A stretch of 53,390 nt of DNA from a virus (IMGVR_UViG_3300025307_000067:1-53390), one strand, 5' to 3'. Counted from the first letter of the stretch, positions 4,043-29,677 are shown. Numbers and translations are program-made. The notes: generated from the sequence alone by a model not told the origin.

Positions 4043-4045
4043 GTT

Positions 4046-6155: not shown

Positions 6156-6176
6156 AATAATTCCTATCTCCTTTTA

Positions 6177-11919: not shown

Positions 11920-12541
11920 AGGGCACCCGATTTTTGATAGTGACCGGCGTGAGTCCTCTCTTGACGATTCGCTCCAGATCTTCCCCGGTTTCATCACCTT
12001 TGACCACATATTCAACTGCGGTCGGGCGGAAGATTGAGAAGATGGCAGAAATATCTTTCTTTCCCTCGATTGGTTCGCGGATATCAGGATGGCTTATGGT
12101 AACAATTTCAGTGAGCACCTTCCTATGAGCCAATAACACCCAAGTCTCACCTAGTTTGAAATCTTTGGGGACTGCCCCGATGCGCCGACTGATACCCATC
12201 TCTCTGGCCTCTTGGAGAAAAATTTCTGGAGTCGGATAGAATTTCTCACCGATCCAGATAAGCCCGGCCTTACCAATTTGTCCAAAGTCATTCAATGGGC
12301 ATTTACATTGAGGGGCATCTGAGTGGAGCCCTGGACCATTGGGAAAGAACAATCTATCAGCATCTACCCACGTCCAAGCTCTGGCGGGTCGAATACCGGC
12401 ACCACAGCACGGACATACCGTGAGGGCAAATGGAAGTTTACAACAGTTTTGTCCAGTTGGTGGCCCAATTAGATATAAGCCACCCGGCTTGCGATATCCG
12501 CAGCCTCGTTTGCCCTCAATCTGGGTTTCGATTTTAATCAT
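11912..12541 (-). CDS. hypothetical phage protein
   Basis: RGCGYRKPGGLY, CPCC, WIGEKFY; strong RBS. Confidence 0.75.
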   Translation of the reverse strand: MIKIETQIEGKRGCGYRKPGGLYLIGPPTGQNCCKLPFALTVCPCCGAGIRPARAWTWVDADRLFFPNGPGLHSDAPQCKCPLNDFGQIGKAGLIWIGEKFYPTPEIFLQEAREMGISRRIGAVPKDFKLGETWVLLAHRKVLTEIVTISHPDIREPIEGKKDISAIFSIFRPTAVEYVVKGDETGEDLERIVKRGLTPVTIKNRVPYE

Positions 12542-13068
12542 ACATTTCTCCTCGCTGTTTTGGCCATATCACCAAGAATATCTTTGACCTTTGACAATCT
12601 GTCCAAGTTTTTAGTTAGGTCCAGGAGTCCTACTTTGAGGCCAGGAATAGCATCCTGGAGTTTACATAGGGAGTCGACGACCTTATTGAGATGGTCCAGC
12701 CAGTAGCCAGGCTCTGCTGGAGAATTACTCGATGTAAGGCCAAAATCATTTTTCAATTTCTTTATAGCTTTTTCTCCAGCTTTGGCATTTGCTTCTACTG
12801 CTGGACAAGGAAAACGAACAGGGAGAAATTCTTTGTCGGTTGAGATAAATTTCTTTCTCTTGTCTATGAATCCGACAAATTTGACGTACCCTTCCTTCAC
12901 CAGTTCGGAGATTGCTCTCGATACGGAAGAAATATCCATTCTATCCTCGAATAGAGCTTCCCAGATATCAGTCGGTCCAGCGCCTTCTGGATGTTGCATG
13001 AGAACTAGGTTTAAAGCGGTGTAAACCTCTTCCTGTAATTCTTGTGATATTTTTCTTGTCATCACCAT
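12538..13068 (-). CDS. wHTH DNA-binding protein
   Basis: ISSVSRAISELVKEGYV (MarR-like wHTH). Confidence 0.65.
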   Translation of the reverse strand: MVMTRKISQELQEEVYTALNLVLMQHPEGAGPTDIWEALFEDRMDISSVSRAISELVKEGYVKFVGFIDKRKKFISTDKEFLPVRFPCPAVEANAKAGEKAIKKLKNDFGLTSSNSPAEPGYWLDHLNKVVDSLCKLQDAIPGLKVGLLDLTKNLDRLSKVKDILGDMAKTARRNV

Positions 13069-13286
13069 GTCCTCCCAAACATCCAGCCAAACAATGCTCC
13101 GATGGCCAGACAGAAAGTTACTTCAATTCCCCAGATTATCCAGACCTTGCGGTTGGCTTGCTTGGCTTCTGGGCTGAGTCTGGATTTCCTGATTTCTTTC
13201 CAGTTGTTGGTCATGATAATTCTCCTTTTTTTAATATTTAAGCATAATTTGGAAGAATTCTTGGGGTAGACAGAGATCTCCATCAA
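13062..13286 (-). CDS. small membrane protein
   Basis: C-terminal TM helix; start uncertain. Confidence 0.45.
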   Translation of the reverse strand: MMEISVYPKNSSKLCLNIKKRRIIMTNNWKEIRKSRLSPEAKQANRKVWIIWGIEVTFCLAIGALFGWMFGRTW

Positions 13287-13479
13287 ACATATTCTCCGAG
13301 GCTTCTTTCACATTATCAAGAAACGCCTTTCTTAACCAGCGCGCCATCTTTCTCTTCTCCCGGTTTGATTCCCGACGGATTTGTAATTGAGAGCGAAGAT
13401 GTATCTCAAGTTCATCTGGACTGAAAACACTAGGAAATCCAGTCCACTTCTCAGCAATTTGGTTAAGTCGAGATTTCAT
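13231..13479 (-). CDS. hypothetical protein
   Basis: ATGA overlap with helicase stop, RBS present. Confidence 0.55.
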   Translation of the reverse strand: MKSRLNQIAEKWTGFPSVFSPDELEIHLRSQLQIRRESNREKRKMARWLRKAFLDNVKEASENMFDGDLCLPQEFFQIMLKY

Positions 13480-16184
13480 TTCCTCTCCTTTTTCATTTTC
13501 TTGAGCAGTTCGCCCAGGATGGAATGTTTCTCAACTTCCTTGCCGTCGAGGACCTGGCTTAACACCTCAGCCTTTTCATCGAGCATAACGGCGATGTCTT
13601 CCTCAATGGTGTCCTCGGCTACCAGATAATAGACGTTAACGGTTTCTTCCTGGCCGATACGATGGGCGCGGTCCTCTGCCTGCTGGTGCTCGCCGGGCGT
13701 CCATCCCATTTCTACGAACGCTACGTGGGTAGCAGCGGTCAACGTGATACCTACGCCGGCAGCTTTCGTGTTGCCAACAAAGACCTTAATATCGGGGTCG
13801 GTTTGGAAATCGTCAACAGCCTTTTGACGTTGCTCCTGATTTTCCTTACCAGTGAGGCGAACCGCCTGCTTACCAAACTCGGCCATCAAAGCATCCACCA
13901 TCCAATGATGTACGGCAAACACGATGATCTTTTCATCCTGGTCTACAACGTCTCTGATCCAGGAGAGAGCGGATTGGAGCTTGCCACGGGCCGCCAGCTG
14001 CTTGAGTTTGCCAATGGCCACTAAAGCCTCTGCCGCAGACGCTCTCTCCGCCGCTTCTACACCTTCGGTACGCTCTAACCAACCCAGGAAGTCACGGACC
14101 GCTTCATTATACTCACTGCGGTTTTCCAACTCAAGAGGAACTACCGATCTGATTTTAGCCGGGAGGTCCTTGAGAACGTCCTTCTTGAGGCGGCGGATCA
14201 TTAAGGTCTTGGTGAGGATCTGGTGGAGTTCCTCAGTGTTGCTGGCACCAGAGTAATCCATGGCAAATCCATTAAACTTCGGAGCGCAGAACTTGTTGGC
14301 AAACTTGAACCAAGACGGAAACACCGTCGGATTCACTATGCTGATCGCATTGTAGAATTCGATGGGTCTATTGACAATAGGAGTACCGGACATAGCGATC
14401 ACATGCGGTACGCCTTTGGCCAGATCGCGAACGGCGAGCGTCCGTTGAGCCTTATTGTTTTTGACATAGTGGCTCTCATCAATGACCACCGCCTTAGGGT
14501 TGAGTTTCTTGAGGATCGGATTCCACTTTTTCAAGATGTCGTAATTGATGATGATCACGGAGACGGCTGGCAAAGCCAACTCTTGGCCATTGCCATTTGG
14601 GCTGCCAGACAGGATCATAACGGTTTCTTGTGAACGATCCATCCACTTGTAAGCCTCCCGCCGCCAATTCAGTTTCAAGCTGGCGGGGACTACGATAACT
14701 GCGGGTCTGGCTTCGGGATGGATTCTCAGCCATGCCAGGGTGATAATAGTTTTACCCAAGCCCATTTCATGTGCAACTAACGCTCTCCCTTGTCGACTTT
14801 CAAGGAAGTCAACGCTTTCTTTTTGAAAGGAGAATAGTTTTTCAAAGCCTGGTGGATTTTGGCTTAGTGCTTTAAGCGTAGAACAGTCCAGCCAAGGGCT
14901 TCCAATACTTTGGTTTTCTTGGCGTCTGTGATTTTGCTCTCCTTGCTGTTGTGGAGCCCACTGTCCACTTCTATTGCCACCATCGCGATCGGATCTGCGA
15001 AGTCGACTTTGTAGACAGTCGCGGCACTCGGGAAGGAAGCAATCACTGATTTGGTTTTCACCGGATATTCTCGGATGAACCCCTGCTCCCTCAGAAGACT
15101 GTCCAGATAACCGATAATGTCTGTCATTTCCTGTCCGTTGCCTCCCCGGAAATTCACTCCGTGTTTCTTTCTGGCCATCTCCAATCCCTTGAGATGTTTG
15201 CCCCTGACTTCTGGACGATGCATTGCTTCTTTGGTGGCTTTGGACACCTTCTCTCTCCAGGCTTCGTCTTGGGCATTCTCTATTAACTTCTCTCGGACTT
15301 TGGCCCTGACATCTGGGGTTCTCCCCTTTTCGAGGTTCTTTTTGTTCGATTCGTCTCTCACTTTGCTCGGCTTTCTGACGTAAACTCCCTTCGGCATTTT
15401 TCCTACCCCCATGGTTTTTAATTTCATTATATAATGGGCATAGGGAAAAATAAAGAATATTATTTATCTCTCCAGGTTTGTGCCCTTCCAGGTAGTTTTT
15501 CAGGTTGTCGTCCTGAGTGAACTGCCACTTCTCCAGGAGTTCCATGAGCTGGATGCTGGCGGGCACTTCCCAGAAGAACTTGTCAGGGTTCCAATGTCGG
15601 CTTGGGCAATCTTTGACTTCCTCTTTGATGGTTTCAAAATCTCTGTCTTTACGGTCCCAAAACAGCCGAATTTTTTCGTCCTCGAGCCATGCCGTCCTGG
15701 GCCGTAATGCTGGCGCAGCCATGGGCTCAGGCGCTTGAGCGCCGAGGTTTTTAATCCGTTCGAGGTCCTTAATATAGACCCTGGCTTGGGGGAGGATAGA
15801 CATCACCCGATTCAGGATTTCTTTACTGGCCGGGACGGACCAAAGGCGGGACCCGGTGAAGTCAAAGTTCCAACCTTGGATAGCCTTGATTTCTTTTCTG
15901 ATCGAACCGTCCTCATCGAACTTGAAACGGACGACGAAACGGTCGCCTTTGGCGTTTAGGGAAACGATGCTGGGGCCGTCATTCATGGCCGCAGCAATGA
16001 GGTTCGGGTCCATCTCCATATTGAGGCGAGCCAATTCTTGCTGGCAGATACCCCAATGGTTGGAGCATTCAGGCCCAATGCCTGCAGCGTAACTGTCTGG
16101 ATGGGTAAGTTCTCTGCCGCACCGCCTGCAGAAAACGTCCGGTCGCCTGTCAAGCGTTTCTATGACGGCTTTATCGGGGTTCAT
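13476..16184 (-). CDS. SNF2-family (SMARCAL1/HARP-like) helicase with N-terminal zinc finger; carries a ~200-aa non-helicase insert
   Basis: CRRCGRELTHPDS..GIGPEC finger, two HARP-like repeats, HEMGLGKT, IDESH, SGTPIVN, GVGITLT, QAEDRAHRIGQ. Confidence 0.9.
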   Translation of the reverse strand: MNPDKAVIETLDRRPDVFCRRCGRELTHPDSYAAGIGPECSNHWGICQQELARLNMEMDPNLIAAAMNDGPSIVSLNAKGDRFVVRFKFDEDGSIRKEIKAIQGWNFDFTGSRLWSVPASKEILNRVMSILPQARVYIKDLERIKNLGAQAPEPMAAPALRPRTAWLEDEKIRLFWDRKDRDFETIKEEVKDCPSRHWNPDKFFWEVPASIQLMELLEKWQFTQDDNLKNYLEGHKPGEINNILYFSLCPLYNEIKNHGGRKNAEGSLRQKAEQSERRIEQKEPRKGENPRCQGQSPREVNRECPRRSLEREGVQSHQRSNASSRSQGQTSQGIGDGQKETRSEFPGRQRTGNDRHYRLSGQSSEGAGVHPRISGENQISDCFLPECRDCLQSRLRRSDRDGGNRSGQWAPQQQGEQNHRRQENQSIGSPWLDCSTLKALSQNPPGFEKLFSFQKESVDFLESRQGRALVAHEMGLGKTIITLAWLRIHPEARPAVIVVPASLKLNWRREAYKWMDRSQETVMILSGSPNGNGQELALPAVSVIIINYDILKKWNPILKKLNPKAVVIDESHYVKNNKAQRTLAVRDLAKGVPHVIAMSGTPIVNRPIEFYNAISIVNPTVFPSWFKFANKFCAPKFNGFAMDYSGASNTEELHQILTKTLMIRRLKKDVLKDLPAKIRSVVPLELENRSEYNEAVRDFLGWLERTEGVEAAERASAAEALVAIGKLKQLAARGKLQSALSWIRDVVDQDEKIIVFAVHHWMVDALMAEFGKQAVRLTGKENQEQRQKAVDDFQTDPDIKVFVGNTKAAGVGITLTAATHVAFVEMGWTPGEHQQAEDRAHRIGQEETVNVYYLVAEDTIEEDIAVMLDEKAEVLSQVLDGKEVEKHSILGELLKKMKKERK
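14864..15397 (-). CDS. nested homing endonuclease (DUF559/Vsr-like PD-(D/E)xK) in an alternative frame of the helicase
   Basis: MPKGVYVRK start, basic NUMOD-like helices, EYPV..YKVDFA..VAIEVDSGLH...D..K...L...GWTVLRL; TATAAT at ~15430. Confidence 0.85.
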   Translation of the reverse strand: MPKGVYVRKPSKVRDESNKKNLEKGRTPDVRAKVREKLIENAQDEAWREKVSKATKEAMHRPEVRGKHLKGLEMARKKHGVNFRGGNGQEMTDIIGYLDSLLREQGFIREYPVKTKSVIASFPSAATVYKVDFADPIAMVAIEVDSGLHNSKESKITDAKKTKVLEALGWTVLRLKH

Positions 16185-16217
16185 AATTTAACTCCTTTAC
16201 TTATTATAGGATTTCTT

Positions 16218-16278
16218 CCTCATCATCAGGCCAGAAATTCATCTGGCGTTCCCCGACCCTCAACCGGGGAATTCGAGG
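16218..16278 (-). ncRNA. hammerhead ribozyme, type II, U15.1-A16.1 variant
   Basis: CCUC-GAA-UUCCCCG/CGGGGAA-C-GCCAGA/UCUGGC-CUGAUGA-U-GAGG. Confidence 0.8.
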
Positions 16279-16284
16279 TGTTGG

Positions 16285-16878
16285 TTATAATCCCGCGTCG
16301 AAACCTTGGACTTCTTCGATCTGCGCCTGTACGAGCTCTACTTTGGCCTCTTCTCCCCGAGTTTCCCATTCTTCTTTCTCGGTTTCGTATTCAGTCTGAC
16401 GCTCTTCGAACTCCTCGTCGGTCTCCTCCTTTTCTTTTTCGGGCTCTTCGGGCTCTTCCTCGTCGAACTCGAAGTCCAGGTCAACTCCCTCCAGGTCAGA
16501 AATCCAGCCATCCAACCCATCCACCCGTTCCTGGAGGAGCTGGCCGGTGTCTCCCTGCTGCAAACCTTCGGGCATATTATCAAGATTGCCTTGGGTTTCG
16601 TCCCGGAGATTTTCGATGTTGCCAATGATCTCTTCGATCTGAGATTTCAGATCCTCGGCGGACTCGGCGGTCAGATTCTCGATCTGCTCCTGGATGGAGT
16701 AATACTCCTGCAGGAAAGGGCTGCCGGTGAGCTGGCTGGGCTTGGGCGGAGTCAACGACCGGTAGGTCCGGCTACTTCTCGGCCCGGTCATGACGGACCA
16801 GGTGTAATGTTCGTCTCCCTTCTTAATACCAAACTCGGGATAATCTTTCCGACCTTTCACTTTAAAAACTTTAGGCAT
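16285..16878 (-). CDS. acidic coiled-coil hypothetical protein
   Basis: PKPSQLTGS, LDNMPEGLQ; very Glu-rich C-terminus. Confidence 0.8.
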   Translation of the reverse strand: MPKVFKVKGRKDYPEFGIKKGDEHYTWSVMTGPRSSRTYRSLTPPKPSQLTGSPFLQEYYSIQEQIENLTAESAEDLKSQIEEIIGNIENLRDETQGNLDNMPEGLQQGDTGQLLQERVDGLDGWISDLEGVDLDFEFDEEEPEEPEKEKEETDEEFEERQTEYETEKEEWETRGEEAKVELVQAQIEEVQGFDAGL

Positions 16879-16904
16879 TTTCTTTCTCCTTGATTAGATT
16901 TGTT

Positions 16905-17522
16905 TTATAACTCCTTCAACATCATTTTAATCTCACCAAAAACCTGGTCGATCTTCTTTGGTTTCCAACCCAGGCTATGGAGGAAGGTCCGAATGGAACT
17001 CTGGCTTGGCCGGATCCAGCGGATGGTCCAGTCAACCAATTCCTGAGGACTGCCCAGAACCAGATAAACAACTTCCAAAGCCTCTTTACTGAGGCTGGCC
17101 AACCCAGCCCGGAATTTGGTTTCCTCGAAGGGGCTGGGTCGTTCGTCGGCTATCTGGATACCAAGGTCCAAATCATCTAATGATGATAAGACACTTGAGC
17201 GGTGTTCTTCCGACGGGCTGAACATATTGTTTTGATATGTATGTCCAACTCTTCCATAACCATCTTCGAGAAGAATTGTGTTTTTCTCCTCTGTTGGACA
17301 ATTGATACAGCCTTTGATTCTTCCCATTTGATCCTGGAGTTGATACCAAAGGTGGGTTGAAAACATGCCTTTGTTTGGATCCCAGGTTTTGATCGCTTGC
17401 ATGAACCCGAGAGAGCCGAGGCTGACCAGTTCGTCGAAATCCAAGGAAGGATTTGTTTTGATCTTTTTCCAGGCTACCTTCCTGATCATATTGACGTAGT
17501 CGGAGTATTGAGGTTCTGACAT
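16905..17522 (-). CDS. phage sigma-70-family factor
   Basis: Region 2: DFDELVSLGSLGFMQAIKTWDPNKGMFSTHL. Confidence 0.8.
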   Translation of the reverse strand: MSEPQYSDYVNMIRKVAWKKIKTNPSLDFDELVSLGSLGFMQAIKTWDPNKGMFSTHLWYQLQDQMGRIKGCINCPTEEKNTILLEDGYGRVGHTYQNNMFSPSEEHRSSVLSSLDDLDLGIQIADERPSPFEETKFRAGLASLSKEALEVVYLVLGSPQELVDWTIRWIRPSQSSIRTFLHSLGWKPKKIDQVFGEIKMMLKEL

Positions 17523-17531
17523 AACTTTTCC

Positions 17532-17786
17532 TTAACTGTAGACCAGCCGCCCCGGCTCTTCGGACCGGATGCTAATCCCCCACTCGTAAGCCAACGGACG
17601 GATCGCCCTCAACACCGCGGCGTTCCACTTGGTGTAGCCCTTGAGCAAGGCTTTGGGGGTAATGATAAACTGCCCTTTCACCTTGTAGACCTTGGCGTTC
17701 AGGTCTCTGACCAGGTCGGCAAAGTTCTTTCTGACTTGCCTCTTGCTGTACCTCTTCGCATTGTTACTCATTTGTGTACCCTCCAA
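17532..17786 (-). CDS. hypothetical basic protein
   Basis: GGAGG RBS; likely start at MSNNAK. Confidence 0.6.
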   Translation of the reverse strand: MEGTQMSNNAKRYSKRQVRKNFADLVRDLNAKVYKVKGQFIITPKALLKGYTKWNAAVLRAIRPLAYEWGISIRSEEPGRLVYS

Positions 17787-17801
17787 AATTTAATTTCTGA
17801 T

Positions 17802-17864
17802 ATCCATCATCAGACCTGGAATTCACCAGGTTTCCCCGTGCACCTCCGGGCCGGGGATTCGGAT
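17802..17864 (-). ncRNA. hammerhead ribozyme, type II, U15.1-A16.1 variant
   Basis: AUCC-GAA-UCCCCG/CGGGGA-A-ACCUGG/CCAGGU-CUGAUGA-U-GGAU. Confidence 0.8.
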
Positions 17865-17867
17865 TGA

Positions 17868-18092
17868 TTACCGATAAAGATCAACAAATTCTCCGAAATA
17901 CTTATCGAAGGTCTGCACCGCGTTTTCGTAGTCGCTCGACATCATTTCCTTCTGAATCTGGTCGAAGTCAAGTCCCAGCTGTTTGGCAAGGGTTTTGGCT
18001 GTACCGATCAAGAAGAAAACATTTCCCTCTGGGCCAGTCAGATCAATCTTTCTTTTGCCCTTGGGAAGAGCATCAATAGATTTGATTGTCAT
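17868..18092 (-). CDS. conserved phage hypothetical protein
   Basis: IDLTGPEGNVFFLIG...MMSSDYE...FDKYFG, a pattern I recognise from small phage proteins. Confidence 0.75.
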   Translation of the reverse strand: MTIKSIDALPKGKRKIDLTGPEGNVFFLIGTAKTLAKQLGLDFDQIQKEMMSSDYENAVQTFDKYFGEFVDLYR

Positions 18093-18352
18093 ATCTTGGC
18101 CTCCCGAATCTTCTTGTGGTAGTCGGCTCCCTTGCAGCGGATTGCCTCGCCATTATAGGCACGTTTCATAGCCTTGACAATTGCCTCACTCGGAGGCCCC
18201 TGCCATCTAGGAGTGGAGAAAACCTCAGGATTGTCAAATCTGGCACAATGGAGGCAATCATACCACACCCAACGACGACCACGACTCCTTCTCATGGCAC
18301 CATGATCTCCGCCATATGGTTTGAACCATAGGCAATCTCGATTTGTAGCCAT
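18089..18352 (-). CDS. hypothetical protein
   Basis: AGGAGG RBS before MATNRD. Confidence 0.55.
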   Translation of the reverse strand: MATNRDCLWFKPYGGDHGAMRRSRGRRWVWYDCLHCARFDNPEVFSTPRWQGPPSEAIVKAMKRAYNGEAIRCKGADYHKKIREAKI

Positions 18353-18362
18353 AATTGTCCTC

Positions 18363-18638
18363 CTATAAATACGGAATCCGTATCGGTTTGGGCTCCAAAG
18401 CCTTCTTGGCCAACTTACGATAATACCGCCACCGGGGACACCTATTGCCACATCCAGCATTCATGTACAACTCCGGCTTGAACCCCCTTGCCCTGCACTT
18501 TTCATCAGACATTTGTGGATAGGGTTCGATGTGCCAGCATTTGAATATCTGGAATGGATTGAAAATCTCAGGTGGCTCCCAGGAGTAAAATCGCCTCTGG
18601 TTTTCGAGGATAAGTGCTACTTGTTCAGATTTTGTCAT
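18363..18638 (-). CDS. hypothetical protein ending in KPIRIPYL
   Basis: ATGA overlap with upstream gene. Confidence 0.6.
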   Translation of the reverse strand: MTKSEQVALILENQRRFYSWEPPEIFNPFQIFKCWHIEPYPQMSDEKCRARGFKPELYMNAGCGNRCPRWRYYRKLAKKALEPKPIRIPYL

Positions 18639-18898
18639 CTCTTATCCTCCCACATTTTCATATTGGCGTGGACTTGGTCGGTCAGGCTGACGGAATCTGA
18701 AGCAGACTTGCCAGCCCGGACGGCGCCGTTCTTGCCGACGAAATACAACCTACCGTCTTTGACGAACTGGCGATATTTTGACCGGGAAGAAACTTCCTGC
18801 ATCGCCAGGCCCTCCACCAGGAACCTTACGACCCGGTCGGTCAAGGTCTTGGGTTGGCCTTTCCTGGGGCCGCTTTGGAATGTTTGGTAGGTATTCAT
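18635..18898 (-). CDS. hypothetical protein
   Basis: RBS before MNTYQTF; YFVGKNGAVRAG. Confidence 0.65.
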   Translation of the reverse strand: MNTYQTFQSGPRKGQPKTLTDRVVRFLVEGLAMQEVSSRSKYRQFVKDGRLYFVGKNGAVRAGKSASDSVSLTDQVHANMKMWEDKR

Positions 18899-18899
18899 G

Positions 18900-19139
18900 T
18901 TATCTTCCAGCTTCAAAATCGGCCAGAATTTGCTGATTCCGGCGATTGTCCGCTTCAATATCTTCTTGGTATTTCTTCTCCCAGGCAGTCCAACATTCTT
19001 CACACCAGATGGTCGTCTTAGTGGTGTAATGGCCGCCAGCGCACCAGCGCCTCTTGGTTTCACCCTCGAATCGTTTGAAAACAGGTTTAACCTTTTTACA
19101 GTTGACACATTTGGCTTCCATCATACCCTCCCAATTCAT
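18900..19139 (-). CDS. small zinc-finger protein
   Basis: CVNC and CEEC pairs; GGAGGG RBS. Confidence 0.55.
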   Translation of the reverse strand: MNWEGMMEAKCVNCKKVKPVFKRFEGETKRRWCAGGHYTTKTTIWCEECWTAWEKKYQEDIEADNRRNQQILADFEAGR

Positions 19140-19151
19140 TAGATTTGGTTT

Positions 19152-19210
19152 CCTACCACCGGGTCGCAGCCCGGTTCCGGCCGGTTACCATCCGGCTCTC
19201 ATCAGGTAGG
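19152..19210 (-). ncRNA. hammerhead-like RNA, type I, non-canonical core (GGAA, G at cleavage site)
   Basis: CCUAC-CUGAUGA-GAGCCGG/CCGGCC-GGA-ACCGGG/CCCGGU-G-GUAGG. Confidence 0.6.
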
Positions 19211-19212
19211 GG

Positions 19213-19407
19213 TTATAGATAATCAGGATTGATGTATCTCTCGGCATCAGTGGGATTATCAAAAGTTTTTGGTAACGAGCCATTATAAGGGAAGGCATGG
19301 AATTTATCCTGAGAATTTTTATGCCTCACATGTCCAAGCTCTTGCCCCATAGTGGATTTTACTAACCATGCTGTGTGGTCTAATTTGTGAACTTCTATAT
19401 ATGCCAT
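19213..19407 (-). CDS. hypothetical protein
   Basis: GGAGGG RBS. Confidence 0.55.
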   Translation of the reverse strand: MAYIEVHKLDHTAWLVKSTMGQELGHVRHKNSQDKFHAFPYNGSLPKTFDNPTDAERYINPDYL

Positions 19408-19523
19408 TTTCCTTCCCTCCCATTAATTTATTTGTTAAGGATTGATAAACCGTTATGTTGTGCCTGAGCCGATAAACCGGCTATTAGCTTTGCCCTGAAC
19501 GGCGGCAGGGGATTGACCGCATT

Positions 19524-19847
19524 TTAGTAGATAACCTTGTCCAGGTTATTGATGAGTTGGTCGGATTGATTCTGGATGGTAAATAAGTTATCATCAGGAT
19601 ATTCACAAAGGATTCTTGCTTTACCCTTTTTGAAAGATTCATTATTGAAAAATCCTGGCTCATCTCCTTCTGGCATGAACTCCCAAAAGTAACCGCCAGG
19701 AAAATGTCCAACGTAACGACTTGCCCAATGGCCGGTTGATTTTTCATAATATTGAAAGAACCAACCAATCATCTTACCATTCTGACGAATCTCATATTCT
19801 GGTTTTCCAGAAGTTTTATGAAAAGTTGCCATCTCCTTACCCTCCAT
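19524..19847 (-). CDS. hypothetical protein
   Basis: AAGGAG RBS before MATFHK. Confidence 0.6.
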   Translation of the reverse strand: MEGKEMATFHKTSGKPEYEIRQNGKMIGWFFQYYEKSTGHWASRYVGHFPGGYFWEFMPEGDEPGFFNNESFKKGKARILCEYPDDNLFTIQNQSDQLINNLDKVIY

Positions 19848-19863
19848 TCAGATTTTATTTTGG

Positions 19864-19925
19864 CTCCTGCTACCCCGACCATTAAGCCGGGGTTTCATGC
19901 TCGCCAGGCAATCATCAGGCGGGGT
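19864..19925 (-). ncRNA. hammerhead ribozyme, type I, overlapping the upstream stop codon
   Basis: CCGC-CUGAUGA-UUGC/GCAU-GAAA-CCCCGG/UCGGGG-UA-GCAGG; canonical GUA site. Confidence 0.78.
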
Positions 19926-20199
19926 TGGTTAATTCTTGGATTTGGCGGTCGATGGTTTCAAGTTCAATTAGATGGCTTCTCCTAATGCAATCCAGTTCAG
20001 CCATCTTTTCTGCCCTGGGAAGCATGTCTTGGAAGATCACAAAGCCATGCTCTAAAAACAGCATGGCCACTTGGGTTTTTCCGCCGACGTCTTTGATGCT
20101 GGGATGGAAGGTGTACACTCGGTTAATGACAATCCATTGCTCGTCGGTACATTTTCCTTTGACACTTTCTGTCAAGGCATCAAACTCTGATCTCATCAT
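19915..20199 (-). CDS. hypothetical phage protein
   Basis: EF......I..VY.FHPSI...GK motif; AGGAGG RBS. Confidence 0.7.
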   Translation of the reverse strand: MMRSEFDALTESVKGKCTDEQWIVINRVYTFHPSIKDVGGKTQVAMLFLEHGFVIFQDMLPRAEKMAELDCIRRSHLIELETIDRQIQELTNPA

Positions 20200-20217
20200 T
20201 TTATTGCCCTCCTGAGA

Positions 20218-20478
20218 TTAATTAAAAAGTTCTTTTCCTGCATCGGTGTAATCGAAGACCATATCGGAAAACTTACCCTTGCCCTCGTCATCGGATATGA
20301 CGACTAACCCCTTTTTCACCAGGGAAGCAACTACTCCTCGGTAGATTTTTTCGTCCAGTTTGGCAGCATCGCAAACTGCGAAAGACCACTGACCACCTTC
20401 CAGGCAGTCGCCGAAGTTTGTCTTTCTGGCAGCCTGGAGAACTTTGATTTCCAACTCGGTTAGTCCGTCGGTTTTCAT
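20218..20478 (-). CDS. wHTH-like small protein
   Basis: LTELEIKVL...RGVVASLVKKGLV...YTDAGKEL. Confidence 0.7.
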   Translation of the reverse strand: MKTDGLTELEIKVLQAARKTNFGDCLEGGQWSFAVCDAAKLDEKIYRGVVASLVKKGLVVISDDEGKGKFSDMVFDYTDAGKELFN

Positions 20479-20551
20479 TTTGCTACCCCTTTTTTGCCAT
20501 TGTCGTCCTCAATTATGATTTTCATGTTTCTTACCCTCCACTTTTTATTTT

Positions 20552-20607
20552 GATCTCATCAGCACCAGATTGACTGGTGGACCTGCTCCTCCAAGCAGGT
20601 TTCGATC
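20552..20607 (-). ncRNA. hammerhead ribozyme, type II, canonical core
   Basis: GAUC-GAAA-CCUGCU/AGCAGG-UC-CACCAG/CUGGUG-CUGAUGA-GAUC; GUC cleavage triplet. Confidence 0.92.
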
Positions 20608-20608
20608 T

Positions 20609-20914
20609 TTAAAGATTATTTTTGTACCAAGCCACCAAAGCCCGGAAATTATCTCTCCATTTCCTGCTGTGGTTCATCCCACCTTTCATAACATGGGCAA
20701 CTTCGTGAAGGAAAGTGCCGACTGTGGGAGAATAAATAAATACTTTGGGCTGACCAAACTGGTTTAGCCCAGCCTCGCCATTGAGTTTAGGATCGAACCC
20801 TTTGGCAATGGTTACTGATAAATTAGGAGAAAATTGGTTGCAGACTGCAGAAACGGTTTGTAAGGTTAAAGGAGCCTCATAAAGACTCCCGGCAATTAAT
20901 CTGTTCCAATCCAT
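20609..20914 (-). CDS. small HExxH (SprT-like) metalloprotein
   Basis: TFLHEVAH...NHSRKW; AGGAGG RBS before MDWNR. Confidence 0.7.
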   Translation of the reverse strand: MDWNRLIAGSLYEAPLTLQTVSAVCNQFSPNLSVTIAKGFDPKLNGEAGLNQFGQPKVFIYSPTVGTFLHEVAHVMKGGMNHSRKWRDNFRALVAWYKNNL

Positions 20915-20940
20915 TATTTTATCCTCCTTAGGATTTGGTT

Positions 20941-21006
20941 GATCATCATCAGCATTGGCATCACCAATGGACCGGAACAATTATATTATCTGCTCCGGTT
21001 TCGATC
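20941..21006 (-). ncRNA. hammerhead ribozyme, type II, canonical core
   Basis: GAUC-GAAA-CCGGAGCA/UGUUCCGG-UC-CAUUGG/CCAAUG-CUGAUGA-U-GAUC. Confidence 0.92.
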
Positions 21007-21330
21007 TTTCGATAATAATTTTTTCACTACTGGCCAAACCCGGCCCCGGTACTTATTCTCATCTCTTTTAAATTGTTAATCAGCTTAGTTTTCGGTCTCT
21101 CTCCTACCAAGTCTTATCGGTTTTGAACCGGTTCCTTGGGTGACCTCCCCGGGTTCCTCCGAGTGCGTCAATTTAAGCCTTTAGGTGGCCTGAACCCTAT
21201 CTTCCCATTTCAGGAGTTCATGAGGTGGTCCGTGCTGTGGGTTTGCCTTTCGGCCTCTCCAACCACCCCGCCAGGTTCGGCCCGGCTTTTCATTTGGTCT
21301 GACTTTGGTACCTCCTTAACCTTTATTTAC

Positions 21331-21363
21331 CTATATTATATAGTGTTCTGTGAAGAAGACAAG
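21331..21363 (-). promoter_or_regulatory. putative early promoter
   Basis: TTGTCT-16 nt-TATAAT with an AT-rich UP-like region upstream. Confidence 0.65.
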
Positions 21364-21466
21364 CTTTTTTATTAAGAAATATTAATTTATAGGAATTATT
21401 ATTTTATAACTATCCAATGATTACAATAGGTTATAAAAACACCCAAAAATAATTTTGGTTTAGGTC

Positions 21467-21973
21467 CTATTTTTTTTCACTTTCCAGCCTCAAATCATCC
21501 AAATATCTCCTACAACTTCCCTTATGTCCATCCTCGTCCTTATTGAAATTCTCCTTTACTCCCCATCGACCACAGCGCTTACATTGCAGAGCATGAGCGC
21601 TGCCAGTAGCCTGCCAAGCCCGCTGGCGCTTCTTGAGCAAAAAGTGATATTCACGCCCCTGACAGACCACCAAGTTGGAATTATCAGAATCAGATTTACA
21701 GCCATTGACGTGGAAGATCTCGGCTTTGGATGGCAGATATATGCCTGCAGCTTCCTCGACCACCAACACATCTTCTCTGACATGAGAGGTTTTGGATCTT
21801 AGTGCTCGGGGATTATCTGGGGCGTAGATGGTCTTATAGGAATTGATCTGCCCTGCTCCTTTTTTCCAGTTAGGAGCGTTCTCACCAACTCGGCCAGTAT
21901 GATAATGACCTCGACGCCAGAGGCATCCAGGAGTGACTTGTCTTCCACAGCCGCAGGCACAGAGTCGTTTCAT
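21467..21973 (-). CDS. degenerate HNH homing endonuclease-like protein
   Basis: CACGCG, NAPNWKKG, IFHVNGCKSDSDNSNL (eroded HNH). Confidence 0.6.
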   Translation of the reverse strand: MKRLCACGCGRQVTPGCLWRRGHYHTGRVGENAPNWKKGAGQINSYKTIYAPDNPRALRSKTSHVREDVLVVEEAAGIYLPSKAEIFHVNGCKSDSDNSNLVVCQGREYHFLLKKRQRAWQATGSAHALQCKRCGRWGVKENFNKDEDGHKGSCRRYLDDLRLESEKK

Positions 21974-22413
21974 TTGCAGCCTCTTTTCTTTCTTCTCTCT
22001 TCTTCTTTTGTTATTGCCTTGATATCCATAACCCAAAGAAAGTTTGATTTTACACATTTCGTAAATCCCTGCCCGACTTTTGGCTTATATCCTATGTTAC
22101 AACTACCTATTTTCATTTTTCCCCATTTTTTCTGAGATTTGTTTGCTATAAAATTAGGACATGATCCACAGCTTGATGGCAATGGTATTGGTTTTGCTTG
22201 TTTCTTTGGTAGGCGGTCTATTTTTTCTTCTAACTCTTCTATAGTAGGTAGATATTCAAAAGAGTATATAAAACTGGCAATAAGATGAAATTCTAACTTT
22301 TGTGAAGAACAACTCCATTCAACCTTCTCCATTTTTTCTAAAAAGCAAAGATAAGCCTTGTCGCGAATAGATTGTTTACGAAGTGGAAATTGAATTATTT
22401 TTGCTGTGTTCAT
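21970..22413 (-). CDS. hypothetical protein
   Basis: AGGAGG RBS, ATGA overlaps. Confidence 0.55.
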   Translation of the reverse strand: MNTAKIIQFPLRKQSIRDKAYLCFLEKMEKVEWSCSSQKLEFHLIASFIYSFEYLPTIEELEEKIDRLPKKQAKPIPLPSSCGSCPNFIANKSQKKWGKMKIGSCNIGYKPKVGQGFTKCVKSNFLWVMDIKAITKEEERRKKRGCK

Positions 22414-22823
22414 TGCCCCCTCCTATATGAGCCAGTAGCCCATTGAGCCCATGCCTCCTTTGCCGCCAGCAGAATAGCAATGCAAGGATTATCATCTGCG
22501 CCTTGGCCGTGGATGAAAGGATCGATTTTGTGGAACTGAGCAATGGATATAGTTATACCCTTATGGGCCTGCCAGTTCAGATTGAGATTAAACCCATCAG
22601 ATCCATCTGGTAAGGCCTCACGCATCTTTCTGATGACCATCCATATCTGGCCGGTGGATTCATCATCAGGTCGCCACTGGTCTTCAAACATAACACACTG
22701 GCAGTGCCCAATTTTTTCAGTGGCAACCCACCATTGTCCATGTTGTAAGAACCCCCCCATTAAATCTTCAGCACTCCAGTGCCTAAGTTCCAAAATCTTT
22801 GGATTGGTCATTTTACTCTCCAT
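22410..22823 (-). CDS. hypothetical protein
   Basis: WRPDDE...WMVIRKM...PCIAILLAA. Confidence 0.6.
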   Translation of the reverse strand: MESKMTNPKILELRHWSAEDLMGGFLQHGQWWVATEKIGHCQCVMFEDQWRPDDESTGQIWMVIRKMREALPDGSDGFNLNLNWQAHKGITISIAQFHKIDPFIHGQGADDNPCIAILLAAKEAWAQWATGSYRRGQ

Positions 22824-22977
22824 TTTGGTTAAAAACTAAAAAAGTTTAAAAGTTACAAACCCCGATATCTTATTAGCGGGCCATAGCCAAGACTTTTGTA
22901 CTGATGAATACAAATATACCAAGTAGTACACACCATCCGTACAACTTAATCTGATGGCGCTTATGAAGTTCTTTCAT

Positions 22978-23238
22978 TTATAAGCTCTCTACCCTCAAAA
23001 CCCGCCGCTGACCAATCCAGTGAAAGTTGATTTTGCCATCGACGGTGTAAAATATTAACATAAATGGTCCACGGTAAGGATTGCGTCTCTCGGGTTCATC
23101 ACACATTGGATTCATACAGAGAAAGTCGGTGTTGGGATCAGTAGCGATCTTTTCCACATAGGCAGTCTGAAAATCAGTCCTGCCAGACGATGGGCCAAAG
23201 TTTGATAATTCGTGGTTGTTACCGATTTTGATTAGCAT
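22978..23238 (-). CDS. hypothetical protein
   Basis: AAGGA RBS before MLIKIG. Confidence 0.45.
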   Translation of the reverse strand: MLIKIGNNHELSNFGPSSGRTDFQTAYVEKIATDPNTDFLCMNPMCDEPERRNPYRGPFMLIFYTVDGKINFHWIGQRRVLRVESL

Positions 23239-23242
23239 TTGA

Positions 23243-23458
23243 TTAGTCCTTATACAAGTCTTTGTTGAATAGCGCATACCAGAAAGCAGCGATCCAAACC
23301 CGGGTAGTAGGAAATAACCAAGGTAGAAACACAGGTGGAAATGGGATGCCTTCAGAATGGCACATAAATGGATCGAACCGATAATCTTTGACCCTTTCCA
23401 AATAAGTGGGTTGACGAAAGCGTTCTGGATGGATGATGGTTTTAGCAAGATTAGGCAT
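23243..23458 (-). CDS. hypothetical protein
   Basis: AGGAGG RBS directly below a TATAAT promoter. Confidence 0.55.
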   Translation of the reverse strand: MPNLAKTIIHPERFRQPTYLERVKDYRFDPFMCHSEGIPFPPVFLPWLFPTTRVWIAAFWYALFNKDLYKD

Positions 23459-23469
23459 AAATTTATCCT

Positions 23470-23618
23470 CCTATATATCTATATTATAGTAAAAATCTCC
23501 TAAAATAAAGGATTATTTATATACTAAAAATAATTTTTATATTGGTTATTTCATAGTAAACCACTATAGTATAATTTTTATTCTTTGAATTATTTTATTC
23601 TTACATTATAATAATTTT
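23470..23618. promoter_or_regulatory. AT-rich divergent promoter region separating the two genome arms
   Basis: TATAAT on minus (~23483) and plus (~23570, ~23608); gene orientation switches here. Confidence 0.65.
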
Positions 23619-24449
23619 ATGGTTGAGCGCATTCCATATATAGATAATAATTTAATAAAGCGAGGCAGAGAACGCCCTAAGGGGAGCAAGAATAGCCCTG
23701 GCCATAAGGCGGGTAGGCCAAGCAATGGGAAATCACAGCATAACCTATCTATTAAACCCATCGTAGAACCTAATGTAACAGCCGCTACTAAGAGTTCTCT
23801 TCCGATTAGGGTAAAGGAGCCACCCCAGACTATAAACTTGAATACAACGAGTCATACCAAGCCGGTTAGGCTACCTTATATAGAATGCACTGACGGTCAC
23901 AATTACCCTCCTGTATTAGACTTGACTCTACCTTCTAATGGAAACGGTAAACCAAAGCCTACGAATCCGATTCCTCCTAATGTGGCCCGTTCGGTAATAC
24001 AGTCTGGTTTGAATGAGGAGTTGATCACCCCAGAGCAGATCATTAAAGAAGTGATGAAGATAGCAACCTCTGATATTAGGCTACTCCCCGGTTGCCCTAA
24101 GGGGATTCCGGATGATATAGCGGCGGCCATATCGTCTATTGCTTTAAATCCTCTTGTATATGAAGGAAAACCGATTCTAGGTCCAGACGGAAAAGTTCTT
24201 TGTCAAGTAAGATATAATCTCTGGAGTAAATCTTCTGCCCACGACCAGCTTATGAAATGGGCCGGGCTATATTCACAAGACAATGCTCAGACCAAGCCCA
24301 GTATAAATCTACAGCAGAATATCCAGGTCAACCAAGTCAATCTTAAGGATTTCTCCAAGGAAGAGCTTTTAGCCTTGTATAAGCTGGGAATATTGAAAAG
24401 TCAGAGCGAAGAGATGCTGCTCTTACCAGAAAAAAGTTCATGTGATTGA
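23619..24449 (+). CDS. terminase small subunit with disordered N-terminal extension
   Basis: ITPEQIIKEVMKIATSDIR...AAAISSI...LWSKSSAHDQLMKWAGLY. Confidence 0.75.
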   Translation: MVERIPYIDNNLIKRGRERPKGSKNSPGHKAGRPSNGKSQHNLSIKPIVEPNVTAATKSSLPIRVKEPPQTINLNTTSHTKPVRLPYIECTDGHNYPPVLDLTLPSNGNGKPKPTNPIPPNVARSVIQSGLNEELITPEQIIKEVMKIATSDIRLLPGCPKGIPDDIAAAISSIALNPLVYEGKPILGPDGKVLCQVRYNLWSKSSAHDQLMKWAGLYSQDNAQTKPSINLQQNIQVNQVNLKDFSKEELLALYKLGILKSQSEEMLLLPEKSSCD

Positions 24450-24473
24450 GTTGATTCATACTATAATATAAGT

Positions 24474-24891
24474 GAATGGAGGAGGCGGGTGAGTAAGACG
24501 GTTGTACAAGATCACGCATTACTCGCTAACTTCGCCCCGGTGATACACCCGTGTAGAGTGGGCCTTCTCTGTCACCCGGGCTGGTGGAGGGCTGCTGAGA
24601 TTGCCGACTACTATTGATTTCGTCGGCCAGTATGCAGCCCCTCTCGCTCCCGCTGGCGAGGAAGAGTGCAGCGGTGACTCGGCTGTGGCCACCGAGGTCG
24701 TTAGACAGAGAGTAAGGCTCAATGTTTCGGTGGCATCTGCTTCAAGGAGGAACTAGATTGAGTAACCCTAATGGAACGCCGCGGCACTGGAGTGCCAAAG
24801 GCCCAGATGCCCAGACACTGGTGAGCTTTTGGCAAGGGAAATCCTCCTAAGGCCCGCCGGGAGCCTAATGAAATCCCGGCCTTGATTTTTT
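24474..24891 (+). ncRNA. unassigned ~400-nt structured RNA
   Basis: CTATAATATA -10 at 24461, GC-rich non-coding stretch with many helices, terminator at the 3' end. Confidence 0.6.
24856..24891 (+). terminator. intrinsic terminator
   Basis: GCCGGGA...TCCCGGC followed by CTTGATTTTTT. Confidence 0.55.
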
Positions 24892-24916
24892 AATTAGCTT
24901 GCAAGTAGGCATAGAT

Positions 24917-25162
24917 ATGGCGGTGAAGATTCCACGAGAGCAGATAGCCAGTTCGATTTCAGACCCCTGTCTTCAATCACTGACTTTTAAAGAAGTGCTT
25001 TCGTGTTTTAAAAAAGCAAACAAAGTACTTGGTAAAAACGGCGATGTTGATATTGAGGTTTGGATAGAAAACAAAATGTATAGAATTGTGAGGGTAGGAC
25101 AATTTAGTTTTGTTCCCACAGTTACCTTAACATTGGTCGATAAACCAGAATTTGAATTATAA
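24917..25162 (+). CDS. hypothetical protein
   Basis: ORF between the ncRNA and tmRNA. Confidence 0.45.
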   Translation: MAVKIPREQIASSISDPCLQSLTFKEVLSCFKKANKVLGKNGDVDIEVWIENKMYRIVRVGQFSFVPTVTLTLVDKPEFEL

Positions 25163-25165
25163 TCA

Positions 25166-25518
25166 GGGGGTGTAATGGTTTCGACGGTGGCAGGAAATCA
25201 TAGTTGCGTTCCGGGGCCAACTTCCGTTAATGTTGGACATGGCACACTTGCCGACTCTTACTACCAACTGAAAGCGGCTTAAGGCACGCTTTCCGTTCGT
25301 ACTGATGATTTCAGATAGTCAGATGCGGGCGTCAAACCTAATCTGGATAGGAGATATGATGTTGCTGCATCGTCATTATCCGAAGTTTAGCGCAGCTGGT
25401 CTGGCAGGAGTTGATCTCAGAGCAATATTGCCGGGCGAGACGGAGTCTGAGATTATGAATGTAGATGCTATGGTAGAATGTTCTCCGGACCCGGGTTCGA
25501 CTCCCGGCACCTCCACCA
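25166..25518 (+). ncRNA. ssrA: tmRNA; tag (A)ADSYYQLKAA at 25250-25282
   Basis: 5' GGGGGTGTAATGGTTTCGAC; 3' CCGGGTTCGACTCCCGG-CACCTCC-ACCA with G3:U70; tag ORF ending AA-TAA; TATAAT just upstream. Confidence 0.96.
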
Positions 25519-29411: not shown

Positions 29412-29464
29412 ATATTTTGATGAAAACCAGATTGAATCTGTGAAATTTTACTATAATATAAGTA

Positions 29465-29647: not shown

Positions 29648-29677
29648 TAATTCCTAATCAAAAGGAGAACCTGAAAG

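Follow-up and report, generated by a model that had tools for sequence, protein, structure and literature searches.

The window, by which we mean the whole 53,390-base stretch of DNA analysed here, comes from an uncultured freshwater phage and carries a leftward early/replication operon on its minus strand. The genes concerned (13476..20914; open reading frames, translations, Pfam and PHROG) are g1, a HExxH-like protein of 101 aa, then a 16-codon frame with g2b, followed by g3, g4, g5, g6-g10, g11, a sigma-70-region-2 protein (17522-16905), g13 and an SNF2 helicase (16184-13476), all on the minus strand. A sigma-70-like promoter for this operon is predicted at 21335..21362, also on the minus strand (TTGTCT, 16 nt spacer, TATAAT; 10/12 in a consensus scan), and the aligned position in the relative L003 reads TTGACT...TATAAT. 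It is followed on the same strand by a conserved non-coding leader (21015..21334), about 320 nt long from the predicted start. The segment 21374-21015 is 85% identical to L002 and L003, compared with 65-74% in the flanking genes. All five differences in the sole small frame of the leader alter the residue, and one leader helix changes from CCAAG/CUUGG to CCCCG/CGGGG between the compared sequences. A search of Rfam with the leader gave no match. Terminator-like signals within the operon are not above chance (12 found, 13.3 expected in shuffles). A strong promoter-like site is present inside g9 (18180-18152, 11/12 matches); because of it, the operon might not be transcribed as a single unit.

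Six hammerhead-type folds, A to F, were read directly from the sequence in the gene gaps of this operon, all on the minus strand. The initial annotation had reported six such intergenic elements, each with CUGAUGA and each placed between a stop codon or leader and the next ribosome-binding site, and all six are where it had put them. The CUGAUGA sequence (the CUGANGA box, C3-A9) is present in 6 of 6 elements. Assignment of A-D to type II follows from the descriptor, and of E and F to type I from covariance model R2, as had been claimed. Element A is preceded by the non-coding leader, which ends 9 nt before it. Elements B, F, C and D start 1, 2, 3 and 6 nt past the stops of g1, g5, g10 and g13, respectively, while in E the first UGA of CUGAUGA is itself the stop codon of g3. 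After each type II element, the next start codon comes 26-33 nt past its 3' end.

The type II descriptor requires, in order, stem II, GAA, the stem III hairpin, N17, the stem I hairpin, CUGAUGA and stem II. Over the two strands of the window together it matches exactly four times, at 21006-20941, 20607-20552, 17864-17802 and 16278-16218, and the helices of these matches, in type II order, have 6-7, 6-10 and 4 bp. With the same kind of descriptor, 1,358,231 bases of unshuffled phage DNA yielded 189 matches, and a block-shuffled copy none. CUGAUGA occurs 23 times in the window, with 10.66 +/- 3.25 expected, and 23 or more were seen in 0 of 100 shuffles; six of the eight minus-strand occurrences between 16223 and 20952 are inside the elements. 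A strict type I descriptor gave no match in the window, both E and F failing it.

Element A (20941..21006, minus strand) has the canonical type II core with one extra U after A9; its C17 is nucleotide 20970, with the cut predicted at 20970/20969. Element B (20552..20607, minus strand) is a canonical type II hammerhead with C17 at 20580 and a predicted cut at 20580/20579, and its minimum-energy fold is the three-way junction. The 4-bp stem II is identical in the two, GAUC/GAUC. Model R1 was built from an alignment of IMG/VR type II members, none of them from the window or its relatives; against it A scores 46.4 bits (E 8.4e-9) and B 58.8 bits (E 1.1e-11). By their sequence, A and B are type II hammerheads of textbook form and belong to an abundant phage class.

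Elements C (17802..17864, minus strand, A17 at 17832) and D (16218..16278, minus strand, C17 at 16248) also match the descriptor. They share the U15.1-A16.1 pair and an additional U following A9, and their 6-nt loop I is the same. Their scores against R1 are 16.0 bits (E 0.1) and 15.3 bits (E 0.15), a level of about 16 bits that is also that of spurious matches. Between C and D every pair of stems I and II differs and pairing is preserved, and the flanking A...A and the 3' tail of C agree with the type II class. A search for further copies of the C/D type found none that fold among 83 pattern matches. To judge from these features, C and D are a divergent sub-type of type II. The U15.1-A16.1 pair is a rare natural variant that self-cleaves weakly, with lowered activity (PMC3088659, section 8).

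Model R2 was made from the IMG/VR type I class, again with no member from the window or its relatives. Element E (19859..19925, minus strand, A17 at 19871) matches it over 19923-19859 with 25.1 bits (E 9e-5). Stem III is present, stem I has 4 of 5 pairs with an A·C mismatch, and stem II has 3 bp closed by U·U, corresponding to U10.1·U11.1, which is known in natural hammerheads (PMC3088659). The 3' tail pairs with loop II over 4 bp (UGGC with GCCA), and the minimum-energy fold of E is without stems I and II. The initial annotation had counted this element among three canonical copies, together with A and B; the description fits B and A, and E is a variant.

Element F (19145..19210, minus strand) has the type I fold and scores 67.3 bits against R2 (E 5e-17). 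It retains all three stems, both in the minimum-energy fold and in the R2 alignment, and the loop II-tail pseudoknot; the pseudoknot reads UGGU/ACCA where most members of the type I class have GGC/GCC, and is thus a compensatory change. Its core has GGAA for GAAA (G13) and a G at position 17 (19157), which in the minimum-energy fold is paired with C3. None of the 24 type I class members from IMG/VR has GGAA. Ruffner, Stormo and Uhlenbeck reportedly found in 1990 that G13 or G17 each strongly impair hammerhead cleavage, and to our knowledge the cleavage-site nucleotide 17 of hammerheads is not G. With a G at both positions, F is most likely catalytically disabled or very slow and kept for its structure. 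The G13 and G17 combination was not found described in the available part of PMC3088659, whose variant lists in Figures S6/S7 may include one. The initial count of six ribozymes is therefore right as to hammerhead-family identity, for which class models, covariation in relatives and unselected conserved features speak, and too high as to activity: probably five or fewer copies are active.

It is useful to compare the cores of the six elements. Only in A and B is the core unaltered. The extra U between A9 and G10.1 is found in A, C and D, and likewise in four other type II members at other phage loci. The GAA box with A15.1-U16.1 is present in A, B and E, GAA with U15.1-A16.1 in C and D, and G-G-A in F. 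Nucleotide 17 is G in F and in the copy of F in L004; the other five elements have either C (A, B and D) or A (C and E) there.

The type II pattern, with the core and a GAUC stem II fixed, occurs in at least 119 stretches of IMG/VR. Both hairpins are in exact hammerhead register in 79 of 89 matches, from 80 loci examined out of these at least 119 stretches, whereas only 10 of 120 pattern matches fold likewise in a far larger collection of cellular genomes. When 70 of the 84 unique members are aligned, two-sided changes appear at 9 of 15 pairs and the catalytic core is invariant. Among 68 unique sequences N17 is C in 63, A in 4, U in 1 and G in none, in agreement with the rule on nucleotide 17; this count is from a descriptor that admits G, which some other descriptor runs excluded. 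Of the 119 unique class members among the matches listed, 112 have a stem II of exactly 4 bp. An A precedes stem II in 84/84 and follows it in 79/84, and loop I begins with U in 84/84. All these unselected features, the 4-bp stem II, the flanking A...A and the U-first loop I, are found in each of A-D. A Shine-Dalgarno sequence and start codon were found downstream of 55 of the 84, at a median of 24 nt and within 10-39 nt in 53 of the 55. Loop I of the type II class was searched for Watson-Crick pseudoknot pairing with the 3' tail, and the mean best pairing was 3.17, with 3.26 in the shuffled control. The A...A cap, the U-N-A loop I and the AGAAAC-like tail, conserved in the class and common to A-D, suggest a contact of another kind. 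The type I class, with stem II GAGCCGG...CCGGCC, comprises 24 IMG/VR loci (18 unique), and two-sided changes are seen at 12 of its 20 pairs, among them 3 of the 4 loop II-3' tail pseudoknot pairs.

Rfam reports B alone, as RF02276 (Hammerhead_II). The alignment spans the whole model, positions 1-66, but its 29.5 bits fall short of the gathering score, which is 37 bits; for A, C, D, E and F Rfam gives no match even at E up to 10. As a control, 12 phage loci holding 20 pattern-matching hammerheads gave no hammerhead match over threshold, and the Rfam thresholds thus appear too high for these short forms. The check by hammerhead covariance models proposed in the initial annotation accordingly has a divided outcome: R1 recovers A and B and R2 recovers E and F, C and D stay near 16 bits, and all six fall below the Rfam thresholds.

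The elements are conserved to different degrees in relatives. The L003 homologue of E (2608-2669, 30.1 bits with R2) has a perfect 5-bp stem I, and its stem II differs with compensation, the U·U being kept. In the window E closes g3, and its L003 counterpart closes an unrelated 81-aa frame. F is likewise retained in L003, where stem I reads CCUGC/GCAGG instead of CCUAC/GUAGG; A, B, C and D are absent there. In L004, F and C are present and E is missing after the g3 homologue. The L004 copy of F (2287-2352) carries both core changes too, at 92-95% identity, and has different neighbouring genes. The L004 copy of C is identical, within a block of 98-100% identity (17960-17781). Window-L004 identity is highest at F and C and then breaks off exactly at an extra gene of L004. 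Further core variants are an insertion after A6 (L003 4457-4537) and a swapped G3-C8 pair (L004 1190-1256), and a badly eroded copy with 16 bits is found at L003 3410-3467.

The insertion after A6, U15.1-A16.1 and U10.1·U11.1 are all described core variants (PMC3088659). In vitro cleavage is established for clustered prophage hammerheads, and one array of three also cleaves in E. coli (Perreault et al. 2011, PLoS Comput Biol; PMC3088659); three type II hammerheads of Desulfovibrio vulgaris cleave in vivo (PMC8782182). As in the window, the prophage clusters have type I and type II elements close together, flanking genes or short blocks of small unknown proteins, and the proposal made for them, that long phage transcripts are cut to gene- or operon-length mRNAs, is the processing hypothesis considered here, already published in 2011 (PMC3088659). 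The present array differs in that a single operon, in an uncultured freshwater phage, contains six elements belonging to two types and three sub-classes. Loop-tail pseudoknots are described for all three hammerhead types (PMC3088659). The window class shares with RF02276 the helix order, the open stem II and the CUGAUGA and GAAA boxes. It differs from that pseudoknotted consensus in its fixed 4-bp stem II capped by A...A, a stem I hairpin of 17-18 nt and no detectable Watson-Crick pairing of loop I with the 3' tail, and it scores below the gathering score. Similarly, E and F resemble the pseudoknotted type I form in the open stem I, the box order and the 4-bp loop II-tail pairing just past stem I, but E has the 3-bp stem II closed by U·U and F the two core substitutions.

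In the early mRNA of T7, host RNase III cuts structured intergenic sites and produces separate stable messages with 5'-phosphate and 3'-OH ends. This is a working analogy for intergenic structures that divide an early polycistron; here, however, the RNA would cut itself and leave 5'-OH and cyclic phosphate ends, and sequence and fold are unrelated. RiboJ is an insulator engineered from a satellite-RNA ribozyme, a hammerhead just before the ribosome-binding site that removes variable upstream RNA and leaves a hairpin-capped 5' leader. The phage hammerheads are likewise just 5' of ribosome-binding sites; unlike RiboJ they are natural, and by this analogy their insulating role is putative.

Taken together, we consider it probable that these are genuine hammerhead-family RNAs in the intergenic spacers of the operon that cut the polycistron into blocks. 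Processing without protein is plausible from hammerhead chemistry and from the placement about 25-30 nt upstream of start codons. The analysis establishes what the motifs are, which classes they belong to, where they lie and that they are conserved in relatives; transcription as a single unit, cleavage and an effect on stability are what we infer. In the proposed mechanism the operon would be transcribed from 21362-21335 and every element would fold as a three-way junction. Self-cleavage after nucleotide 17 would occur in the copies with a competent core: A and B, with E a probable third, and C and D at a slower rate. The upstream piece would end in a 2',3'-cyclic phosphate behind a hairpin, which for type II is stem III; for type I the entire ribozyme would remain with the upstream piece. 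The downstream piece would start with a 5'-OH, and for type II the stem I hairpin would come first, 54-63 nt to the next start codon, while type I would leave a short leader of 32-38 nt. The polycistron of about 5 kb would then give a leader of about 360 nt, g1 (390 nt), g2-g3 (709 nt), g4-g5 and g6-g10 (714 + 1325 nt with cleavage at F, otherwise 2039 nt), g11-g13 (1584 nt) and a message for the helicase. With a defined 5' untranslated region and end structures on every piece, stability and translation of a block might be uncoupled from the RNA upstream.

A more far-reaching version, which we regard as distinctly unlikely, would make the array a natural ribozyme insulator and cassette system. 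With each element at a fixed distance of about 25-30 nt before a start codon, every gene block would then be given a standard leader that is capped by a hairpin and begins with a 5'-OH. Cleavage at A would release the conserved, structured 5' RNA of the operon, about 360 nt long, to function independently as a non-coding RNA. The elements would at the same time be the junctions for gene-cassette exchange between phages, and F, with G13 and G17, would cleave by a non-standard arrangement or be purely structural.

Polycistron cutting must be weighed against readings in which cleavage matters less. Most or all copies could be hammerhead-derived RNAs without useful cleavage, kept as hairpin modules that serve as exonuclease barriers, RNase or protein sites, or spacers setting the context of the ribosome-binding site. 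The core deviations in 4 of the 6 elements point this way, as do the stems and compensated pseudoknot that F keeps despite G13 and G17, at 92-95% conservation between differing neighbours, the variant or eroded copies in L003 (4457-4537, 3410-3467) and L004 (1190-1256), and the inactive hammerhead-like RNAs in phage contexts noted in the legend to Figure S7 of PMC3088659. However, A and B have the full canonical core, the invariance of that core over 70 aligned class members is hard to explain without selection for catalysis, and the variants seen in C, D and E are reported to retain activity (PMC3088659), so we find this reading rather unlikely. Quite improbable, in our judgement, is that the elements are mainly cassette boundaries or linkers that promote recombination between phages, with ribozyme activity secondary. 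The absence of A, B, C and D from L003 and of E from L004 fits such a role, together with the ending of different upstream genes (g3, and the 81-aa frame of L003) in the same element and the peaks of window-L004 identity at F (95%) and C (98-100%) that end at the extra gene of L004. Against it, the comparison covers two or three related genomes, the 98-100% block includes about 90 nt of coding sequence and is thus explained by a single recent exchange, and an invariant catalytic core with freely covarying stems would be left unexplained.

The initial annotation had also suggested possibly circularisable units, and segments freed by neighbouring ribozymes might be rejoined as circular RNAs, either through ligation by the hammerheads themselves or by a host ligase of the RtcB type. 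The support for this is the 4-bp stem II common to A and B, through which the 5' end left by A and the 3' end left by B could reassemble a hammerhead around the g1 segment. But GAUC is simply the commonest type II stem II (94 of 119 unique class members among the matches listed), C, D, E and F are incompatible with their neighbours, and neighbours in longer arrays, for example L116, are often stem-incompatible. Spliced or circular products were sought by Perreault et al. and none were found (PMC3088659). Rejoining into circles thus appears very improbable, and the suggestion is unsupported. As for chance, namely ordinary intergenic hairpins that happen to adjoin CUGAUGA and GAA, the silence of Rfam at its curated thresholds might be quoted in favour, but Rfam is equally silent on the 20 hammerheads of the 12 control loci. 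The R1/R2 E-values of A, B, E and F (1e-11 to 9e-5, and 5e-17 for F) and the shuffled control (0 in 1.36 Mb, against 189 in real sequence) reject chance resemblance for these four, and for the array as a whole its probability is close to negligible. Arrays of such elements reach eight hammerheads in other viral contigs.

Six hammerhead elements are located on the minus strand of the leftward early operon (21362-13476), which carries the genes g1-g11 and g13 together with a sigma-like protein containing sigma-70 region 2 and an SNF2 helicase. Four elements, A (21006-20941), B (20607-20552), C (17864-17802) and D (16278-16218), are of type II, and two, E (19925-19859) and F (19210-19145), are of type I. 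Read directly from the sequence, each combines three helices with a GAA box and the motif CUGAUGA. A type II descriptor produced exactly four matches in the whole window, all at the positions that the initial annotation had assigned to A-D, and a similar descriptor produced 189 matches in 1.36 Mb of phage loci compared with none in a shuffled copy. The motif CUGAUGA occurs 23 times in the window, about twice the 10.66 found in shuffles, none of which (0/100) reached 23. Both E and F fail a strict type I descriptor. Stem I of E is interrupted by a mismatch and its stem II has a basal U·U; in F the sequence GGAA replaces GAAA (G13) and position 17 is G. With R2, the type I class model built from sequences of other phages with the window and its relatives left out, F scores 67.3 bits and E 25.1 bits. 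The six hammerhead-like folds are thus confirmed, by descriptor matches for A-D and by R2 scores for E and F. The two core changes of F are regarded as strongly inactivating, and F is probably not an active ribozyme. The elements had no variants across three freshwater or lake metagenome DNA runs. Two further candidates were rejected. The spacer between g4 and g5 (19523-19408) has neither CUGAUGA nor an Rfam match, and its fold is not beyond shuffles (z -0.23). An R2 match at 29412-29472 on the plus strand (19.9 bits) was considered noise, as its stems are poor and position 3 is U.

The initial annotation had proposed a check with Infernal and hammerhead models, for which the Rfam models proved of limited use. 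At the gathering threshold the sole Rfam match in the whole window is a tmRNA. At E-values up to 10, in 12000-25000 and 19100-21420, B alone appears, its 29.5 bits falling short of the gathering score of 37; A, C, D, E and F are not reported. Rfam likewise gave no match over threshold for the 20 pattern-matching hammerheads contained in 12 other phage loci, and no hammerhead match at E up to 1 in eight related loci. Because the 20 hammerheads in the other loci are likewise unreported, the Rfam misses reflect a limit of the thresholds and are not evidence against the elements. It is important to note that standard Rfam thresholds overlook such elements in phage contigs.

For the type II class, the pattern fixed nothing but a GAUC stem II and both core boxes, leaving the interior free. 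It is present in at least 119 stretches in IMG/VR, and both hairpins are in exact register in 79 of 89 matches from 80 fetched IMG/VR loci. Of 120 matches taken from cellular genomes, a considerably larger collection, only 10 fold in this way, which indicates that the type II class is a phage feature and that the pattern by itself is insufficient. In an alignment of 70 of the 84 unique members, selected for pairing and not for covariation, the core is invariant and stems I and III covary freely. Several further features were not selected for. A stem II of exactly 4 bp is shared by 112 of 119 unique members, an A precedes it in 84/84 and follows it in 79/84, the first base of loop I is U in all 84, and a Shine-Dalgarno sequence and start codon lie downstream at a median of 24 nt. 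The survey thus yields testable rules, namely a fixed 4-bp stem II, conserved flanks and a fixed start-codon distance. Pairing of loop I with the 3' or 5' flank, as a pseudoknot, was no better than in a shuffled control.

With R1, the type II model built from the alignment of 70 members and likewise without the window and its relatives, B scores 58.8 bits and A 46.4 bits, while C and D score about 16 bits each, the level of spurious matches. Despite these low scores we accept C and D as putative members of the same family as A and B, mainly because all four share the unselected features: the 4-bp stem II, the A caps, the loop I beginning with U and the placement of the downstream start codon. 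Every pair of stems I and II differs between C and D, with the pairing preserved. A search for further copies of the C/D sub-type gave 83 pattern matches in IMG/VR; none of them folds as a hammerhead, and they were therefore attributed to chance.

The type I class was recovered with stem II of F as the probe, which returned 24 IMG/VR loci (18 unique, five duplicates and one non-folding). In the resulting alignment stems I and III covary, and so does the pairing of loop II with the tail that immediately follows stem I.

The window, one IMG/VR virus record with an estimated completeness of 53%, is phage DNA throughout. The minus-strand arm (1-23450) includes a DnaB-like helicase, a primase, the SNF2 helicase and the sigma-70 region 2 protein, and the plus-strand arm (from 26334) includes an exonuclease, the large terminase, the portal and head-morphogenesis proteins. 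Within the minus-strand arm the hammerheads occupy the first 5 kb, a stretch that begins at a promoter-like site (21362-21335) conserved in one related phage. This is the one strong upstream promoter, and terminator signals in the operon are not above chance; on these grounds the region would be transcribed as a single RNA. A caveat to the one-transcript reading is a strong promoter-like site inside g9, at 18152-18180 on the minus strand (TTGTCA, a 17 nt spacer and TATAAT; 11/12). It outscores every other such site in the region and may be an internal promoter.

If the region is cleaved as in the hammerhead family, the 2'-OH of nucleotide 17 would attack the adjacent phosphate, leaving a 2',3'-cyclic phosphate and a 5'-OH. 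The predicted cuts are at 20970/20969 (A), 20580/20579 (B), 19871/19870 (E), 17832/17831 (C) and 16248/16247 (D), with one at 19157/19156 should F work at all. At the type II sites, the stem III hairpin would end the upstream RNA and the stem I hairpin would head the downstream RNA, 54-63 nt upstream of the next start codon. At the type I sites, the ribozyme would remain with the upstream RNA, and the downstream message would have a leader of 32-38 nt. With cleavage at A, the conserved non-coding leader, about 360 nt long, would be released. These steps and the resulting RNA pieces are what we infer for the operon.

The activity is expected from the sequences to differ by copy. Elements A and B are standard hammerheads and F is apparently disabled, while C, D and E would be known weak variants. 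The U10.1·U11.1 of E is given as the best tolerated mismatch in section 8 of PMC3088659, and the U15.1-A16.1 of C and D is described there as cleaving weakly.

The same arrangement is found in the prophage hammerhead arrays described in Perreault et al. 2011 (PMC3088659), in which three arrays are reported as tested in vitro and one in E. coli. Given these published arrays, and others with up to eight elements in viral contigs, the six elements in one operon are a good example and are not new in kind. Protein-free processing of the polycistron, as put forward in the initial annotation, is plausible, and processing into gene-length mRNAs was already published as a hypothesis in that paper. The accompanying suggestion that released segments are possibly circularisable is unsupported; the account in Perreault et al. 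2011 states that circular or spliced products were sought without success. Since stem II differs within arrays, the idea of a universal stem II through which neighbours reassemble for circularisation was not accepted as generally valid. Hammerheads often flank small ORFs of unknown function and are tied to phages according to a 2017 review (PMC6155905), which, like a 2019 review (PMC6765202), lists the role of hammerheads in phage genomes as unresolved. The operon offers a compact natural test bed, with two standard, three weak-variant and one apparently disabled copy separated by defined genes. Comparing cleavage, RNA half-life and protein output over the six sites could reveal site-by-site tuning of processing efficiency. 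The largest array among the 151 fetched loci is in another viral contig, L116, where a 3.3-kb stretch of the plus strand (3034-6289) contains eight type II hammerheads, and arrays of three or four are present in several other fetched loci.

Blastn found no match to the 4.9-kb region among 50,697 deposited phage records, and no close relatives came from scanning viral contigs for a protein pattern drawn from just the sigma-like protein. This protein has few relatives (8 proteins), and their alignment led to the recovery of two viral and seven metagenomic loci. The related loci L002 and L003 are identical in sequence. The copy of E in L003 has a perfect stem I and a different yet paired stem II, with the U·U retained. 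Its copy of F (4457-4537, plus strand; 48 bits) has a compensating change in stem I, the standard GAAA, U17 and an extra A after A6, and a third copy (3410-3467, plus strand; 16 bits) has an eroded 5' core box and GGAA. In another related locus, L004, the copy of F carries the same G13 and G17 and the copy of C is identical to that of the window. A further type I hammerhead in L004 (1190-1256, plus strand) scores 66.8 bits with R2 and has the core GUGACCA; it looks like a compensatory core variant in which the pair C3-G8 is swapped to G3-C8.

The presence of the elements varies among relatives, L003 being without A, B, C and D. Compared along their length, the window and L004 are most alike at F (95% identity) and at C (98-100%), the latter over 17960-17781 on the minus strand (L004 3420-3693), in phages that are otherwise 50-85% identical. 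Element C, the last part of g10 and the ribosome-binding site all fall within this block, which ends exactly at an extra gene of L004. The L004 contig ends in a long series of 12-nt repeats (5100-5341, plus strand), which are variants of CAGCGTCTGGGC and apparently lie within a coding frame.

At the operon's 5' end, the non-coding leader (21015-21374, minus strand) shares 85% identity with L002/L003, compared with 65-74% for the neighbouring genes. In its only small frame all five differences alter the residue, and one helix shows a double compensatory change. The leader has no Rfam match, its fold z-score of -1.5 is not significant, and an exact 21-mer taken from it is contained in L002/L003 alone. 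The leader may be a new structured RNA, which A would cut free.

Other features of the genome were also observed. Element B is immediately followed by a frame of 16 codons (20475-20525, minus strand) that has a good ribosome-binding site. The stop of this frame and the start of the following gene overlap (ATGA), suggesting that their translation is coupled. Genes similar to HNH or homing endonucleases are found in the early arm at 21467-22057 and 10498-11391 (both minus strand), one of which adjoins the operon promoter on its upstream side. The tmRNA gene (25166-25518, plus strand) is full-length, scores 132.7 bits and encodes the tag peptide ADSYYQLKAA; it appears to be phage-encoded, since it lies between the two divergent arms of otherwise phage DNA. 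Just past the large terminase gene is a run of repeats of about 36 nt (29470-29650, plus strand), for which a repeat finder gives 2.2 copies at 29570-29647, with more degenerate copies visible by eye upstream; a role in protein binding or packaging is possible. The 1192-residue Mu F-like head-morphogenesis protein (33632-37210, plus strand) contains an inserted DUF559/Vsr-like endonuclease domain at residues ~580-690, with sub-threshold matches to intein splicing and, close to the C-terminus, to a PARP-like domain.
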